From: Mobula hypostoma
Taxonomy: Eukaryota
Direction of reading: 5' to 3'
Assembly (NCBI RefSeq): GCF_963921235.1
Contig: NC_086107.1
Location: 99,016,001-99,080,000, forward strand
Length of the DNA stretch: 64,000 nt
A model generated the notes under the pieces. That model was not told the origin of the DNA, ran no database searches, and saw only the letters and a program-made list of their open reading frames with translations. Shown one piece after another: positions 18,701-27,870 of the stretch. The stretch's first letter is position 1, and each line of letters starts with the position of its first letter. A program made the position numbers and the translations under genes.

Positions 18701-21034
18701 GAACAGAAGGCAACAAAAAAACCATTAAAGAGAGAAAAGAGGAAACATGAAGGGAAGCTAGCTAATAATATCGAAGAGGATATGAAATTTTTTTTCAGCT
18801 ATACTGTAGAAAGAGTAAAAGGAGATGAGAGTGGATATTGGACTGCAGGAAAATGAGGTAATAATGGGGGAACAAAGAAATGGTCAATGAGCTTAAAAGT
18901 ATTTTGCATCAGTTTTCACTGTGGAATGTGAGGAATGTGAGACAGTGGGGGGCAGTTGCTATGACTACAGAGAAGGTGCTTGGGAAGCGAAAGGTTTGAA
19001 GGTAGATAAGTCACCTGGATCAGATGGACTACACCCCAGGGTTCTGAAAGATGAGGTTGAAGAGATTGTGGAAGCATTAGTAATGCCCTTCCAAGAATCA
19101 TTAGATTCTGGAAGGTTTCCTGAGGACTGTAAAATAGCAAATGTCACTCCACTCTTTAAGAAGGGAATGAGGCAGGAAATTATAAGCCTGTTAGCCTAAC
19201 TTCAGTGTTTGGAAAGGTGTTGGAGTCCATTGTTAAGGATGAGGTTTTGGGGTACTTGGAGGCACACGATAAAATGGATCAGAGTCAACCATGGTTTTCT
19301 AAAGTGGAGATCTTGCCTGACAAACCTGTTGGAATTTTTTGAGGAAATAACAGGAAGAATAGACAAAGGAGAGTCAGCGGATGTTGTTTATTTGGGGCCC
19401 TTTTGTCTTTGGCTGTTTGTGACTAGTGGCGTTCTGCAGGGGTTGATGTTGGCACCACTTCTTTTCATGTTGTATGTCACTGATTTGGATGAAGGAATTG
19501 ATGGCTTTGTGGCCAAGTTTGCAGATGCTACAAAGATAGGTTGGGGGGGGGCATGTAGTGCTGAGGACCCAGGGTGCCTGTGGATGGACTTGGACAGATT
19601 GGAGGAATGGGCAAAGAAGTGGCAGATGGAATATAATGTAGGGTAGTGCATGGTCATGCACTTTGTCAGAGGGAATAAAAGCTTGGGTTTATTTTCTCAA
19701 AAGGGAGAAAATTCAGAAATCCGAGGTGCAGAGGGACTTGGGAGTTCCTGTGCAGGATTCCCTAAAGGTCAACTTGCAGGTTGAGTTAGAGGTAAGGAAG
19801 GCCAATGCAATGTTAGCATTCATTTGGAGAGGGCTAGAATACAAGAGCAAGGATGCAATGCTGAGGCTTCAGAGGCTTAGGCCAGCTGCATTTGGAGTAT
19901 TGTGAGCAGTTTTGGGCCACTTATCTAAGAAATGTGCTGGCATTGGAGAGGGTCGAGAGGAGGTTCACAAGCATTTGCTAGCTCTGGGTCTGTACTCGCT
20001 GGAGTTTAGAAGTACGGGGAGGGGGTGTGTGCGTGGGGATCCCATTGAAGCCTACTGAAAGGCCTAGAGTGGATGTGGAGAGGATGTTTCCTATAGTGGA
20101 GAAGTCTAGGACCAGAGGGCACAGCCTCAGAACTGAGGGATGTCCATTTAGAACAGGTGAGGAATATTTTTTGTGGAATTCATGGCCACGGATGGCTATG
20201 TAGGCCAAGTCATTGGGTATATTTAAGGCAGAGGTTGATAGGTTCCTGACTAATCAGGACGTCAAAGGTTACGGTGAGAAGGCAGGAGGATGGGGTTGAG
20301 AAGGATAACAAATCAGCCATGATGGAATGCAGAACGGACTTGATGGGCCGAATGGCCTAATTCAGCTCCTATGTCTTATGGTCTTATAATAAACGTTAAA
20401 GTTTGTGGAGAGTAACAAGATGTACCAGCAGCTGATCTTAAAACCCATCTCGAAAAATTTCCTCACAAATCCTCCTCATCCCAAACTAACTGTTGTTCAG
20501 AATCCAGTATGTGTCATTGGATCAAACCGAACTGTTCTTTGTTAAACGTTTCACTCATTTCAATTCAAATTCTAAGAGGCAAAGTTTTTATTCTTTGGGT
20601 TGAGAGAATAAGTAAAGAAGGAGCGGAAAGTCGAAGCCTGTGTCTGCAGGCCTAAGTCTGAGTTCAAAAGTTCAAAGTTCAAAGTACATTGATTATTGAA
20701 GTGTGTTTACATTATACAACCTTGAGATTCGTCTCTTAACAGGCAGCTATGAAACAAAGAAACCCAAAAGAGCCCATTAATAAAAGACCGTCAAACACCC
20801 AATGTGCAAATAGAAAAAAAACATCATGCCCACAAAAAAGGAACCGGTAAAACTAAAAGAACCCATTTAAATAAAAGACCATTGGCCATCCAATATGCAG
20901 AGAGGAAAGAAATACAAGCAAATAGCAATCTGAACTGAACACAGGCAAGTGAGTCCCACATTTCAGCAATAGTTGAGCGCAGAACCAAGTCGGGGAGCAG
21001 CGATCTGAACCAGCTCGACCCTCACCTTGGGCCC

Positions 21035-21264
21035 TGAAGCACCTTCAATTACTCCAAAAGACTGAGGTTTGGTAAAAATACTGAAAGGCTTTTATTCGCT
21101 GTACAATACGACCTCCACAGTGAGTGTCTGCCCCCGGACTGAGGGGGAGGGGCAAGGCGAACACCTTTATACAGGACTCTGTGGGAGGAGCCACAGGGGC
21201 AGTCAGCAGAGGGGTGTGTCCAGACAGGTAACCGAGTTACAACATATATACATGGTTTACCACA
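21035..21264 (-). repeat. 3' LTR (TG...CA)
   Basis: Minus strand reads TGTGGTAAACC...TATAAAG...AATAAA...GTGCTTCA. It differs from the 5' LTR by 4 substitutions and 1 indel by eye. Confidence 0.95.
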
Positions 21265-21282
21265 TTCACCCCTCCTTTTTTT
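21265..21282 (-). promoter_or_regulatory. Polypurine tract
   Basis: AAAAAAAGGAGGGGTGAA lies immediately upstream of the 3' LTR on the minus strand. Confidence 0.85.
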
Positions 21283-21333: not shown

Positions 21334-24300
21334 TTACAGGTTAAGTCTATCAGGCGGTCGAGTCCGTCGCTGTGATCGACGTAGCACCGGCGGTGATTGC
21401 ACCGGCGATGGCGGTTGTGCTGGCTCCGGCCTGACTTCAGGTGCCAGCACGTTAGGCGTCGGTAGTCCCTCGTGCGTGTGCGTCGCGCCCGGTATGGGAG
21501 TGTCGTGTGGTGTCTGTATAGGGTTTGGGGTGCACGGTGCCTCGTAGGTACATACATTAGTGGGTACGGGGTCAATAGTCACCACGGAGTGTTCAGGGTA
21601 GGGGCCCAGAGCTCCTGCGAGCGCCAGGTCGCGGATGGAGACCGTGTCCTCCCGTCCATCAGGTAAAACCACGTAGGCATACTGGGGGTTTGCATGAAGT
21701 AAGTGAACCCTCTCGACCATCGGGGAGTATTTATTGCTCCTCGCATGTTTCCGAAGCAGCACTGGCCTCGGGGACGTCAGCCAAGATGGTAGGGTGGTTC
21801 CAGTGGTCGATTTTCTGGGAAAAGAAAAGAGCCGCTCATGGGGGGTGGCATTGGTGGCTGTGCATAACAGGGAGCGGATGGAGTGGAGTGCCTCGGGAAG
21901 GACCTCCTGCCAGTGGGAGACCGGCAGTCCCTTTGACCTGAGGGCTAAGAGTGTGGCTTTCCACACTGTGCCATTCTGCTTCTCTACCTGTCCATTCCCC
22001 CGGGGATTATAGCTCGTGGTCCTACTGGTCGCAATTCCCCTAGCCAGTAGATATTGGTGCAGCTGGTCACTCATAAACGAGGACCCTCTGTCACTATGGA
22101 TATAGCACGGGTATCCGAACAGAGTGAAGAGCTTGTGCAGGGCTTTTATAACTGACGTGGTAGTGGTGTCAGGGCAGGGGATGGCGAAGGGGAACCGCGA
22201 GTACTCGTCGATAACGTTAAGAAAGTACACATTGCGGTCGGTGGAGGGAAGGGGGCCCTTAAAGTCAACACTCAGTCGCTCAAAGGGGCGGGTGGCCTTG
22301 ATGAGTGGTGCCTTTTCGGGTCGGTAGAAGTGCGGTTTGCACGCTGCGCAGACTTGGCAGTCCCTGGTCATCATCCTGAACTCCTCAAGGGAGTAAGGCA
22401 GGTTCTGGGCTTTCACGAAGTGGAAAAGCCGGGTGACTCCCGGGTGGCAAAGGTCTACATGTAGGGCGTATAGCCGGTCGATCTGCGCGCTGGCGCATGT
22501 TCCCCGGGATAGGGCATCGGAGGGCTCGTTGAGCTTCCCAGGCCTGTACATGATGTCATAGTTGTAGGTGGAGAGTTCGATTCTCCACCTCAGAATTTTA
22601 TCATTTTTGATTTTGCTCCGCTGCTGATTATTAAACATGAACGCGACTGAGCGCTGGTCAGTTAGCAGGGTGAACCTTTTGCCGGCAAGATAGTGCCTCC
22701 AGTGCCTTATAGCTTCCACTATGGCCTGGGACTCTTTCTCTACCGCAGAGTGCCGAATTTCAGGGCCTTGAAGGGTACGGGAGAAGAACGCCACTGGTCT
22801 TCCTGCCTGGTTGAGGGTAGCAGCCAGCGCAAAGTTGGAGGCGTCACTCTCTACTTGGAAGGGAATGGCCTCATCCACCTCATGCATTGCTGCTTTGGCA
22901 ATGTCCCCTTTTATGCGGTTGAAGGCCGCGTGGGCCTCGGCAGAGAGGGGGAATGTGGTGGACTTGACCAGGGGGCAGGCCTTGTCTGCATAGTTAGAGA
23001 CCCATTGGGCGTAATATGAAAAGAAGCCCAGGCACCCTTTGAGGGCTCTGAGGGTATTGGGAAGAGGGAGTTCCAACAGGGGGTGCATACGGTCGGGGTC
23101 AGGGCCAATGACTCTGTTCTCCATGACACACCCAAGGATAGCAAGTTGGGTGGTCCCAAATACACACTTGTCCTTGTTATAGGTGAGGTTGAAAGATTTG
23201 GCCGCTTGGAGAAATTTTTGGAGGTTGTTGTCGTGATCCTGCTGGTCATGACCGCAGATGGTGATGTTATCCAGATATGGGAACGTGGCCTTCAGTTGGC
23301 ACTGGCCCACCATCTGGTCCATTGCCCTCTGGAAGACAGATACACCATTCGTGACACCGAAGGGGACGCGCAGGAATTGATAAAGCCTGCCGTCCACCTC
23401 GAAGGCAGTGTAAGGGCAGTCCTACCCGCGGATGGGGAGCTGATGGTAAGCGGATTTTAGGTCTATGGTCGAGTACACCTTGTACTGTGCTATCTGATTG
23501 ACGATATCCGCGATGCGGGGTAGAGGGTACGCGTCGAGCTGCGTGAACCTATTGATGGTCTGGCTATAGTCCACGACCATCCTATTCTTCTCCCCGTTCC
23601 GAACAACCACCACCTGCGCCCTCCAAGGACTTGTGCTTGCCTCAATGACCCCCTCCCTGAGCAGCCACTACACCTCCGACTTAATGAAAGCTCTGTCCCC
23701 CGCGCTGTACCTCCTGCTTTTCGTTGCCACAGGTTTACAGTCGGGGGTCAGGTTGGCGAACAGCGGTGGGGGAGGGATCCTGAGGGTGGAGAGGCCGCAA
23801 GTGGTGTCGGTAGTGTGGCAGTTGGCATGGTGTTGGGTGGGATGTGCGGGTCGGTGTGTGTGTGTGGTCAGTAGCGGGGTACGTGACATATCTCTACAAA
23901 ACAGGGGATTTATGACAGTAATTGGCGGGAGGGGCCCATCATACTTCATTGTCACGCTTTTCAGGTGGCTCTGGAAGTCCAACCCCAACAGCACAGGGGC
24001 ACACAGTTGAGGCAAGACCAGTAACGTAAAGTCCCGATATTCTGTGCCCTGCACCACTAGCGTCACTGCACAACCCCCCCCGGATGTCTGTTGTATGCGA
24101 CCTGGAGGCAATGGTGACCCTCCGACTTACCGGCCGTATCATGAGTCCACAATGCTGCACCGTGGCCGGGTGGATAAAACTCTTCGTGCTGCCTGTGTCA
24201 AACAGGCAGTTTGTCCTGTGCCCCTCCACCAGGATTTCCATCATTGACCTTGCGAGCTGGTGGGGAGCGCTTTGGTCGAGGGTCACGGAAGCCAGGGTGG

Positions 24301-24967
24301 GGTCACTGTCTTGGTCCGGCGCGGTGGGGTGCCCCTTGAGCACCCATTGGTCGTAGGCGGTGGGAGGTGGCGCCGACCAAGATGGCGGCCCCCATGTCTC
24401 GCACGTGGTGGCAGCCGAGGTCGATTCGCCGGCAGGTTGCGGGGTCTGCGGCACCCACGAGGCCATCGGGGGATCGCGTGCCTGGAGAGCCTCGGAGTTA
24501 TGCAGAGCGGCCTCCAACGTATCAGCCAGCTCCATCGCTGAATTTAGGGTAAGATCGGCTTTTTCCAGCAGCCGCTGGCGTACGTACACTGACCTGGTCC
24601 CCGTAACGAAGGCGTCTCTCACTAGGAGTTCTGCGTGCTGCGCCACCGTCAGCTCCTGGCAATTGCAGGCCCGCACGAGCGTCCGTAGGGGCTGGACAAA
24701 CTCAGCACTCGATTCTCCGGACCGTTGTTGCCGTGTCGCTAAGCGATGCCGAGCATAGACGCTGTTTATCGGCCGCAGGTATTGTCTTTTGAGTGCGTTC
24801 ATCGCGCTGTCGTAGTTCGGCTGGTCTCTGATCAGCGAATAAACCCGTGGACTGATCCTGGAGCGTAGAACTCTGCGCTTCATTACGGGGTCGGTCGCTT
24901 TAATCTCCTCTAGATACGCTTCGAAGCAGGCCAGCCAGAGTTCGAAAGCATTTCCAGCGTCAGGCAT
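21334..24967 (-). pseudogene. Disrupted gag-pol polyprotein of the Gypsy element
   Basis: Motifs: gag LVRDAFVTG; protease LFDTGS; RT RMVVDY, IDLKSAYHQL, PFGVTNG, YLDN; RNase H SDAS, EKE, TDQ, DALSR; integrase HHCC and D-D-E (VDF, SDRG, VEK). ORFs 23668-24111, 23422-23613 and 21334-23397 share one frame separated by two TAG stops. One frameshift lies near the C-run at ~24075. Confidence 0.93.
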
Positions 24968-25056
24968 TTGCGGATCAAGGTCTAATTTGTCTGGTCTCAG
25001 AGTTTAAAAATGTACAGCGATGTTTTAAATGTTTTAAAATGTACAGCGAATAAAAT

Positions 25057-25285
25057 TAAAGCACCTTCAATTACTCCAAAAGACTGAGGTTTGGTAAAAT
25101 ACTGAAAGGCTTTTATTCACTGTACAATACGACCTCCACAGTGAGTGTCTGCCCCCGGACTGAGGGGGAGGGGCAAGGTGAACACCTTTATACAGGACTC
25201 TGTGGGAGGAGCCACAGGGGCAGTCAGCAGAGGTGTGTGTCCAGACAGGTAACCGAGTTACAACATATATACATGGTTTACCACA
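25057..25285 (-). repeat. 5' LTR
   Basis: Direct repeat of 21035-21264, with the terminal CA mutated to TA. Confidence 0.95.
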
Positions 25286-25891
25286 GGCCCCGACACCCTG
25301 ACCTTTCCAAACTGGCCCGGTGCCTAAATCTACGCCCAGACATCGGGTTCTACTGCCTCGAGTCCTCCGGAGGCTGCAAGCTGGTATCCCGCACATACAC
25401 AGTTCAAGGACTGTGCGTGGGTGGGAGGGAGGAAGGGGCTAGTTTTGCTGTTGCTGTTTGGTAGCTAGTTCTGCTCTGTCTTGTTCTGCCGAGCCTGGTG
25501 GGCGTGCTGTGTTGTTGCTGGAATGTGTGGAGCCTTCAGCGCCTTGGTTGTTGACGCAAACAATGCATTTCACTGAAAATGTTTTGACGTACACACGATA
25601 AGTAAGTTTGAATCTTGAAAGTGTCCTTTTGGAAACAAACTCTCTGTTCCTTAAAGTTCTGTAGTCAAAATTAGAAGACATTATTTTGTATTTCAAACGT
25701 AATTCAGGCATTCTCCCCACAAGTTGTTGCCATGGTGATCACATGATGGAAGTGTTGTGCTTTTAATCCACTGGGCTTTTACTTTGATTGAAATTCACAT
25801 TTACTCTTGAGAAATCAGAGAATCAGCTGGAACAATAAAGATCATGAGTGACATCTAGACTAATATTTGGGAAAACTAATTTCTTGTCAAG

Positions 25892-26245
25892 ACTCTCTCT
25901 CTCTCTTCTCCCTCTTTCTCCCTTTCAATCCCTCTTTCTCCCTCTCTATCCCTCTCTCTCACTCCTCCTTTCTCTCCCTCTCTCCCTCTTTCTCCCTCTC
26001 TTCCTCTCTCCCCCTCTCTTCCCCTCTCTCACTCTCTCTCCCTCTCTCAATCCCTCTTTCTTCCTCTCTCTCTGTCCCTCTTCTTCCCCCTCTCTCTCTC
26101 TCTCCCCACTCTCTCTCTCAGTCCCCTTCTCTCCCCCTCTCTTTCTCTTCTCCATCTCTCCCTCTCTCTTCCATTTCCCCTCAATCTCTCTCCCTCTTTC
26201 TTTCTACCCTCCCCTCTCCCCTCTCCCTCCTCACCCTCTTCACTC
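25892..26245. repeat. CT-rich low-complexity tract
   Basis: Almost exclusively C/T on the + strand. Confidence 0.9.
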
Positions 26246-26579: not shown

Positions 26580-26900
26580 TGCAACTAGCAGAGTGGCTGT
26601 CTCGGCGCAGAGACACGGGTCCATTCCTGACACTGTCCATGTGGAGTTTGCATGTTCTCCCTGTGGCTGAGTGGGTTTCCCTCGGGTGCTCTGGTTTCGT
26701 CCCACATCCCAAAGATTTGCGGGTTTGTAGATTAATTGGCTGCTCTAACTTTACCCTGTTGTGTGGTAAAACCTGGGGGGAGGTGTTGGGAATGTGGGGA
26801 GAGTAGAAAGTTTCTACGTTCACCCTGTGACCGCGTGGGTTTCCTCCGGGTGCTCTGGTTTCCTCCCACAGTCCAAAGACGTACTGGTTGGCAGGTTGAT
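26580..26900 (+). mobile_element. Two adjacent HE1-like V-SINE pieces
   Basis: GGAGTTTGCATGTTCTCCCTGTG...GGGTTTCCCTCGGGTGCTCTGGTTTC, then a second V-domain at 26820-26890. Confidence 0.7.
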
Positions 26901-27870
26901 TGTCAATGATTTGGGTTGACGGAATTGGTGGCTTTGTGGCCAAGTTTGCGGTTGATACGAAGATAGGTGGAGGGACAGGTAGTTTTGAGGAAGTAGAGAG
27001 GCTACAGAAGGACTTAAGTTATGAGAAGGGGCAAAGAAGTGGCAGATGGAATACAGTGTCGGGAAGTGTATGGCCATGCATCTTGGTAGAAGAAATGAAA
27101 GGGTTGACTATTTTCCAAATAGAGAGAAAATAGAAAAATCTGAGGTACAAAGGAACTTGGGAGTTCTTGTGCAGGATTCCCTGAAGGTTCATTTGCAGGT
27201 TGAGTCTTCGGTGAGGAAGGCAAATGCCATGTTAGCATTCATTTCAAGAGGACTAGAATATAAAAGCAAGGATGTAATGTTGAGATTTCATAAAGCACTG
27301 GTGAGGCCTCACTTGGGAGTATTGTGAGCAGTTTTGGGCTCCTTATCTTAGAAAGGATGTGCTGAAACTGGAGAGGGTTCAATGAAGGTTCACGAAAATG
27401 ATCCCAGGATTGAACGACTTGTCATATGAAGAGTGTTTGATGGCTCTGGGTCAGAAGAATTCAGAAGAACGAGGGGTGACCTCATTGAAACTGATCAATT
27501 GGTGAAGGGCCTCAATAAAGTGGATGCGGAGAGGATGTTTCCAATGGTGGGAGACTTTAAGACCAGAGGACACAGCCTCAGAATAGAGGGGTATCCTTTT
27601 AGAATAGAAATGAGGAAAAATTTCTTTAGCCAGAGAGTGGTGAATCTGTGGAATTCATTGCCACAGGCAGCTGTGGAGGCCAAGTCTTTATGTATACTTA
27701 AGGCAGAGGTTGATAGATTCTTGATTGGTCAGGGCATGAAGGGATACAGGAAGAAGGCAGGAGATTGGGGCTGAGAGGAAAATTGGATCAGCCTTGATGA
27801 AATGCTGGAGCAGACTCGATGGGCCAAATGGCCCAATTCCGCTCCTATGTCTGATGATATTATGGTCTTA
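26900..27870 (+). mobile_element. CR1 LINE 3' ~1 kb
   Basis: VAKFAVDTKIGG, KANAMLAFISRG and RKNFFSQRVVNLWNSLP motifs, with a CR1 tail. Confidence 0.88.

Follow-up and report, generated by a model that had tools for sequence, protein, structure and literature searches.

A 64,000-nt stretch of the genome of the ray Mobula hypostoma (contig NC_086107.1, forward-strand positions 99,016,001 to 99,080,000, hereafter the window) contains on its minus strand a complete 4.26-kb Ty3/gypsy long terminal repeat (LTR) retrotransposon whose primer-binding site (PBS) complements its own LTR. The pairing is kept by all copies of the family that we aligned, and among distant relatives its two sides change together, which on comparative sequence grounds marks an RNA helix that is real, conserved and covarying, located at the primer site in a large lineage of animal Gypsy elements. 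We consider it probable that this helix serves self-priming, in which the element's own RNA would supply the primer for reverse transcription, in one of two geometries that are weighed below.

In the window copy, TTTTATTCGCTGTACA (25055-25040) begins one A past the end of the 5' LTR, which is the primer-binding-site position, and is the exact reverse complement, over 16 of 16 bases, of TGTACAGCGAATAAAA in the 3' LTR (21105-21090). The 5' LTR copy of the same segment (25126-25111) pairs at 15 of 16 positions, the exception being a C>T change at 25119 within a CpG that produces a G-U pair. A preliminary description of this DNA had claimed a Gypsy element with a primer site complementary to its own LTR, with these two matches and with an AATAAA inside the paired LTR segment; our search of the window agrees on each point, and the AATAAA is the sole such hexamer of the LTR. 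The same description placed the segment about 60 nt downstream of the TATAAA, and it does lie downstream, but at 66 nt measured from the first T. Allowing up to 2 mismatches, the 16-mer matches only 3 sites in the 64-kb window, a number reached in none of 100 dinucleotide shuffles (mean 0.01). We refer to the LTR segment as the 5' arm and to the PBS as the 3' arm.

The predicted leader fold is one long hairpin composed of the 16-bp duplex, a small internal loop and a second stem drawn from R/U5. For the 95-nt stretch 25130-25036, the folding energy is -30.6 kcal/mol compared with -13.4 +/- 2.9 for shuffled sequences (z = -6.0), and 1 of 200 shuffles was as stable. When an undamaged sister copy is folded instead, the pair probability is at least 0.98 at 12 of the 16 positions, whether the RNA is begun at an initiator-like A upstream of the arm or at the arm itself.

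The arm pair is the normal state of the family and no accident of the window copy. A search of the assembly (3.48 Gb, 200 contigs) with the LTR and leader returned 1998 first-look candidates, of which the 40 that were scored are 98-100% identical, and both arms are present in 30 of 30 aligned copies (the window copy and 29 others), none of which has a normal TGG PBS. Of the 5' arms, 21 are exact, 8 carry the CpG C>T change and one has a different change; of the 3' arms, 19 are exact, 7 have a final G for A and 4 show other single or double changes. Copy by copy, this amounts to 16 Watson-Crick pairs in 14 of 30 and 15 plus one G-U in 9, with the remaining 7 divided among one mismatch (3), two G-U pairs (2) and a mismatch with one or two G-U pairs (2), and the changes are mostly CpG decay. 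The complementarity stops sharply at 16 nt in all 30 copies, and the gag ATG lies 9 nt past the site in 29 of them. Retention in sister copies, together with the shuffle controls, rules out chance and assembly artefact as sources of the match. At about 98% identity, the 30 copies are too similar to reveal covariation. Many family copies on many contigs keep open frames of about 1300 codons without stops, which together with the roughly 98% LTR identity points to very recent or ongoing activity in the ray genome.

All of the cross-family evidence comes from metagenome contigs and from contigs filed under metagenome-assembled genomes (MAGs). An alignment of 16 proteins led to 80 metagenome loci at 39-65% protein identity, with 532 of 601 pattern matches encoding a relative, and 7 further loci on contigs filed under bacterial MAGs bring the total to 87; a viral contig collection held no relative. 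The 7 MAG contigs (L161-L167, recorded under Hyphomicrobiales, Rubritalea, Ekhidna, Metamycoplasmataceae and Gammaproteobacteria) carry animal-type Gypsy elements, and their bacterial filing looks like eukaryotic contamination of MAG bins. A search of the ray genome itself for more distant families, using a Hypanus protein, returned only the window element's own family.

In the 24 loci with two LTRs, the bases that follow the 5' LTR (CA plus one base) perfectly complement an LTR segment that begins 51-70 nt before the LTR end. In outgroup loci including L093, L094, L098 and L101, no LTR pair was detectable. A targeted scan of the region 1150-2100 nt upstream of the reverse transcriptase (RT) match covered the 53 of 80 loci whose match began near the RT start; the region was absent in 13, and 20 of the other 40 have a perfect arm pair of 11-19 nt in context. 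L034 has the pair as well, at a second element within its contig. Scanning both strands of all 80 loci for pairs of at least 12 nt found 24 loci in the right context, along with background matches in other contexts at L033, L040, L046, L049/L050 and L097. With L038 (11 nt) and L041 included, the pair is present in 26 of the 80 metagenome loci and in 3 of the 7 MAG-filed ones. Each of these 29 of 87 loci has a 10-19-nt pair in the context arm + AAA|RCC ... CA + 1 nt + arm', and 28 are perfect over at least 11 nt; in 116 dinucleotide shuffles of the search regions, by comparison, the best perfect arm reached 11 nt or more once and 12 nt or more never.

Counting the ray, there are 19 distinct arm sequences, among them ATTTCTAGTCGAATAAA, TGATTCTAAGCTGTTAAAA, GTTTACGCGTAATAAA, GATGTTTTGATTAAA, TAATGTAATAAAA and ATGTAGACAAAT, and in places single compensatory steps can be followed, as between L032 and L033 (C:G to T:A) and between L042 and L049 (T:A to G:C). 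The covariation alignment holds 16 sequences, the ray and 15 loci, with duplicates and later-found loci left out. In it 87.8% of cells are paired, compared with 62.2% when partners are shuffled (0 of 500 shuffles as high) and 30-44% when the partner is slid by 1-3 columns. Of the 19 aligned pairs, 17 have changed on both sides, covariation scores 0.66 vs 0.18, and RNAalifold, given the alignment alone, predicts the same 16-pair helix with compensatory change in 14 pairs. Distant relatives thus keep the pairing through changes on both sides, which is what the preliminary description had proposed to look for.

The order of elements in the leader is shared across the lineage as well. The 5' arm is followed, after ...AAA|RCC, by a short hairpin, in most types RCCU-loop-AGGY, stacked on the long-range duplex, then by 20-40 more bases to the CA of the LTR, one spacer base and the 3' arm, with the gag ATG 0-65 nt farther on. 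In nearly all types the 5' arm ends in UAAA or AAAA, and in 12 of 19 a canonical AATAAA or ATTAAA ends within one or two bases of the arm's 3' end. The other 7 types keep the pairing with no canonical hexamer in the arm: in L031 and L032 the hexamer lies in the enclosed loop, and the hairpins of the remaining five contain none.

What the sequences show is a complementarity with its position, conservation and covariation over 19 arm types, and from these observations we infer a start site, a cut, a priming step and a masking of the poly(A) signal, as follows. A segment of 12-19 nt that begins with R or at most a few bases away from its start (here UGUACAGCGAAUAAAA) would fold onto the PBS one base past the 5' LTR, and the intervening R/U5 would form a hairpin stacking on the arm-PBS duplex. 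The RNase H of the element would then cleave behind the final paired A (...AAA|RCC), where the two stacked helices meet, leaving a primer RNA that would end in ...GCGAAUAAAA, and extension of the freed 3'-OH through the spacer, U5 and what remains of R would yield strong-stop DNA. A minus-strand primer has to end at the start of the 3' arm, the point by which the LTR end is defined, and only the element's own R always matches the site, which is the signature that has been used to infer self-priming in relatives of Tf1. The perfect complementarity in nearly every type fits a PBS that would be recopied from its primer in each cycle, as in retroviruses.

In this scheme, R would be so short that the primer segment has the poly(A) hexamer at its 3' end. 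An R that reaches no farther than from the arm to a poly(A) site 10-30 nt past the hexamer would simply explain why primer and poly(A) signal overlap. With the arm in R, the hexamer would be present at both ends of the RNA; pairing with the PBS in a stable 12-19-bp duplex would conceal the 5' copy, while at the 3' end the PBS would be 4 kb distant and already paired. The preliminary description had suggested such hiding, and the position of the hexamer at the arm end in 12 of 19 types agrees with it; we propose it as a plausible second function of the duplex.

Several points weigh against Tf1-like self-priming, in which the arm would be the RNA 5' end, or against the strength of the case for it. 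The case is built from DNA sequence and predicted folds, and the loci in the alignment were selected for an inverted repeat, which inflates the share of cells paired. Selection of this kind cannot create the fixed position of the pair, one base past the LTR and 0-65 nt before gag, nor can it create sequences specific to each family. The pair is absent in 58 of 87 loci, where in most cases the region is missing or the locus is truncated or rearranged; in L081 the region is present, yet its match is only a decayed one. In L041 a perfect 17-nt pair sits 2 nt off the usual junction (an LTR change) and only 10 nt pair in the common register, while L039, L044 and L083 share one uncorrected mismatch within a 19-nt duplex. 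In many types the arm opens with a pyrimidine, which is atypical of a Pol II start, and the comparison with host tRNAs spans three isoacceptors (20 genes for Lys-UUU, Cys-GCA and Thr-CGU). Finally, in the ray, the TATAAA and CTCAGTCC, whose A lies 31 nt farther on, predict that transcription begins 35 nt ahead of the arm, which would place the primer inside the transcript.

If ray transcription were to start at that A (25161), the arm would lie 35 nt inside R, and priming would require either a 35-nt 5' tail on the primer or two cuts, a geometry not described for Tf1. The TATAAA (25192-25187) and the A of CTCAGTCC (25157-25164, a match to the initiator motif only) do fit the usual TATA-initiator spacing, and both motifs are present in 28-30 of 30 copies, although these copies are about 98% identical anyway. 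To the preliminary description, a partner seemingly internal to R had suggested a priming mode different from that of Tf1, a reading that depends on this one promoter prediction in the ray and that the short LTRs of relatives oppose. Other arm types printed with their upstream LTR have no TATA box at that distance, and L161 has just 59 nt of LTR upstream of the arm and L078 about 43 nt (counted on the printed sequence), compared with 91-161 nt in other types and 159 nt in the ray. Because 59 or about 43 nt would leave no room for a start 35 nt upstream, the lineage-wide reading that these LTRs favor is the Tf1-type one. The sharp end of the complementarity in the 30 ray copies is, moreover, the outcome expected if the primer is copied to its 5' end, and with a 5' tail on the primer the plus-strand strong-stop DNA would be left with a 3' flap that has no partner, to judge from the retroviral scheme. 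Contigs from four runs (X1, X4, X5 and X9, from Logan) are short repeat contigs with loose ends that diverge at the LTR edges; they look genomic and are silent on RNA ends and expression. We therefore lean toward a Tf1-like geometry with the arm at the RNA 5' end, and regard the internal geometry as unlikely, though still the strongest competitor. Priming by the 3' copy of R, which the preliminary description also entertained, found no support, and cutting at that site would detach R from the template. The most elaborate version of the model would have one 12-19-nt segment serve both as 3' polyadenylation signal and as 5' self-primer, with PBS pairing silencing the 5' signal and setting the RNase H cut and with the ray primer 35 nt inside the transcript, released by two cuts or carrying a 5' tail; we put it forward as speculation and doubt that it holds in full.

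Another possibility is that the arm-PBS duplex is only structural or regulatory, as a mask for the poly(A) signal or as a packaging or dimerization signal, and that reverse transcription is primed in some other way. The AATAAA or ATTAAA at the end of the 5' arm in 12 of 19 types, which in the ray is the only such hexamer of the LTR, would suit a masking role, and human immunodeficiency virus type 1 (HIV-1) is known to mask its 5' poly(A) signal in a hairpin. If masking were all, however, the 7 arm types that keep the pairing without a canonical hexamer in the arm would be hard to account for, as would the fact that the 3' arm always starts one base past the terminal CA of the LTR, the one place where a minus-strand primer must end. 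Nor is there an alternative PBS at hand: no TGG directly follows the 5' LTR, as the preliminary description had noted, nothing TGG-like comes after it, and the next TGG is that of the gag ATG-G, in a stretch that varies between copies. We consider a purely structural role improbable.

Weakest, and very improbable in our view, is the idea that a host tRNA, a tRNA half or another small RNA binds the site and that the LTR match is secondary, given that the site differs across 19 arm types along with each type's own LTR, which rules out a conserved tRNA primer; that a primer ending in ...AAAA-3' cannot be a tRNA 3' end, these finishing in CCA; and that Rfam finds no match on the element at E values up to 1. 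The longest identity of the site to host tRNA genes is 6 nt, a comparison that covered 20 genes of the three kinds named above, while an Rfam search of the host genome finds at least 60 tRNA genes.

The lineage to which the element belongs was explored with the frame that encodes RT, RNase H and integrase (695 aa). Among 8000 candidates scored, 1620 proteins match at E <= 1e-10; the closest named matches listed are from Mobula hypostoma (93%), Hypanus sabinus (75-84%) and Scyliorhinus (68-77%), and hundreds of polyproteins of about 1200 aa at 50-60% identity follow, encoded on contigs of about 4 kb and also in a sea anemone, Trichinella and a psyllid. When longer proteins were sought, Trichuris, Narcine, a shrimp and a moth were added, and by the named matches listed the lineage occurs in rays, sharks, sea anemones, nematodes, crustaceans and insects. 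Among solved relatives the best match is Ty3 Gag-Pol (E 1.8e-71, queried with the relative P0021), which together with the Pfam domain order confirms the Gypsy identity given in the preliminary description. Atlas neighbors bear the automatic names 'K02A2.6-like' or 'Gypsy retrotransposon integrase-like', not Tf2-like, which we treat as a lead only; a literature search on 'K02A2.6' yielded no classification. No chromodomain was found by Pfam in the 695-aa frame, and none appears in the precomputed Pfam lists of 240 listed relatives (120 + 120), so its absence, reported earlier from the window alone, extends to these relatives. The family of the element is very abundant and recently active, and it belongs to a chromodomain-less Ty3/gypsy lineage of compact elements (about 4 kb) that occurs across animals.

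The proteins of this lineage have further peculiarities. The RT catalytic motif of the window copy (motif C, 23270-23290, minus strand) reads YLDN and not YxDD, and among 120 listed relatives (P0001-P0120) Y[LIMV]DN is found in 79 and YxDD in 27, with the motif not found in 14; an Asn in place of the second catalytic Asp is unexpected for a plainly active and abundant lineage. The gag of the ray family (23939-25003, minus strand) has no CCHC zinc knuckle, while 60 of 61 long relatives have one within their first 450 residues. At the extreme C-terminus of the polyprotein, a basic motif, LRRSxRxRRPPxRLxL, is conserved across phyla (21334-21400, minus strand; alignment A1). It occupies the position that the chromodomain has in chromoviruses and could be a nuclear-import or tethering signal.

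The boundaries of the window element, all of whose parts lie on the minus strand, are fixed by a target-site duplication of GGGCC (25286-25290 on the 5' side and an identical 5-mer at 21030-21034 on the 3' side), by the TG...CA ends of the LTRs and by the polypurine tract. The 5' LTR (25057-25285, 229 nt) reads TGTGG...GCTTTA where the family has ...GCTTCA, so that this copy ends in TA while 29 of 30 copies end in CA; the 3' LTR (21035-21264, 230 nt) differs from it by 4 substitutions and 1 indel. Following the 5' LTR inward, the TATAAA (25187-25192) and the initiator-like motif precede the 5' arm, the candidate self-primer TGTACAGTGAATAAAA (25111-25126), which includes the AATAAA and in which the family has C at 25119. 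The enclosed R/U5 stretch (25061-25110) is predicted to form its own stem, GCCUUUCAGUAUU (25110-25098) with AGUAAUUGAAGGUGC (25075-25061). Between the LTR end and the 3' arm (25040-25055) stands the single spacer A (25056), and the sequence at this junction is CAA in 29 of 30 copies. Just downstream, a copy-specific rearrangement (25003-25030) has left a partial second PBS region, with TCGCTGTACA at 25020-25011, where the other 29 copies have the gag start ATGGAACAGG (ATG in 29 of 30).

The interior, 3.8 kb in the element, codes for gag and then for aspartic protease, RT, RNase H and integrase, the last four matched by Pfam in Ty3/gypsy order, and is spread in the window copy over four broken reading frames (21334-25003). 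The polypurine tract AAAAAAAGGAGGGGTGAA (21265-21282) adjoins the 3' LTR, in which the exact complement of the PBS, with the only AATAAA of that LTR, occupies 21090-21105. Domain order, LTR ends, target duplication and polypurine tract all identify a Ty3/gypsy element. Within the integrase-coding region and antisense to it, ARAGORN calls a 91-nt tRNA-Gly(CCC) (22504-22594, plus strand), which is most likely a false positive, Rfam showing no tRNA there at E up to 1. The element is flanked by six collinear direct-repeat blocks about 7.4 kb apart and 77-84% identical (19484-20330 and 26911-27805), which look like two old copies of another interspersed repeat, and just upstream of it, within 25887-26243 and 26645-26902, lie a CT-rich low-complexity array and, nearby, two 94-nt repeat units 164 nt apart with 79% identity.

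To our knowledge, self-primed reverse transcription has been proven only for Tf1-type elements, and beyond these the literature that we searched associates it with the Tf1/sushi chromoviruses and with a few groups from plants and fungi. What bears this signature here, with strong covariation, is an animal lineage that has no chromodomain and has thousands of young copies in the ray genome, and judging by its sequences the Tf1 mechanism appears to extend to a large group of animal elements. If this is true, tRNA-independent priming would be a common strategy in animals and not a curiosity, and annotation pipelines that require a tRNA PBS in LTR elements would misjudge such elements. Defenses aimed at the match between tRNA and PBS, such as 3' tRNA fragments as presented in the available part of one account (PMC7472051), would miss them too. 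The overlap of the primer with the poly(A) hexamer would provide a directly testable link between 3'-end formation and the initiation of reverse transcription. Our full-text search returned nothing on a self-priming chromodomain-less animal lineage and nothing on a self-primer ending in a poly(A) hexamer, with core subscription papers beyond its reach and an earlier description therefore possible. In the accessible part of one source, animal Gypsy elements are annotated with tRNA PBSs only (PMC13524379).

The closest comparison is with Tf1, in which, according to the available portions of several papers, the RNA's first 11 bases form pairs with the PBS, RNase H cleaves between bases 11 and 12, and adjacent duplexes are needed (PMC7175516, PMC10085805, PMC4600332). 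Self-priming is discussed in similarly partial sources for Tf1, Tf2, Tj1 and other fission-yeast elements and for the vertebrate Tf1/sushi group, and also for Tcn1-like elements of fungi and non-seed plants, listed fungal elements and the plant TAR copia elements (PMC6317226, PMC4600332, PMC3601003, PMC10085805, PMC7175516, PMC6934838; the plant Tcn1-like and TAR elements in PMC6317226). As those portions describe them, Tf1 and Tf2 of Schizosaccharomyces pombe, Tj1 and other fission-yeast elements, Ty3/gypsy chromoviruses whose self-priming is demonstrated by experiment or deduced, have, like the ray lineage, a PBS that complements their own LTR and not a tRNA, a duplex that abuts the LTR end, and a further R/U5 helix beside the primer-PBS duplex. 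The ray lineage departs from Tf1, as portrayed there, in its longer duplex (12-19 bp compared with 11) and in its predicted fold: in place of the three-duplex 'pretzel', we predict one long hairpin with a stacked small hairpin, that is, the primer-PBS duplex and the adjacent R/U5 hairpin, with no conserved third duplex seen and no systematic search made for one. It departs from Tf1 further in its animal hosts, in having no chromodomain and in a primer segment that ends in a poly(A) hexamer in 12 of 19 types.

The vertebrate Tf1/sushi group was reportedly treated by Butler et al. in 2001. Its member sushi-ichi, as far as the consulted parts of citing papers convey, is likewise a vertebrate Ty3/gypsy element with a predicted self-primer (via PMC10085805, PMC6317226, PMC4600332). 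The plant Tcn1-like chromoviruses and the TAR Ty1/copia elements are similar to the ray lineage in that self-priming is inferred for them from PBS-LTR complementarity across lineages, but they belong to another superfamily or clade and to other hosts, and the accessible part of that work describes no link to a poly(A) hexamer (PMC6317226). Unlike the Tf1/sushi chromoviruses, the ray lineage lacks a chromodomain in the 240 listed relatives, and it is by that criterion, not by RT/integrase phylogeny, that we set it apart. It thus shares with the Tf1/sushi group a PBS complementary to its own LTR/R and differs from that group in the chromodomain.

Retroviruses offer parallels for the two proposed functions of the helix. 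The retroviral U5-IR stem is a leader helix beside the PBS that is needed for initiation, a comparison that the title of Lin and Levin (1998) is said to draw for self-priming, and the poly(A) hairpin of HIV-1 contains the 5' copy of AAUAAA. Retroviruses, HIV-1 included, use tRNA primers, whereas in the ray lineage a single helix would do both jobs.

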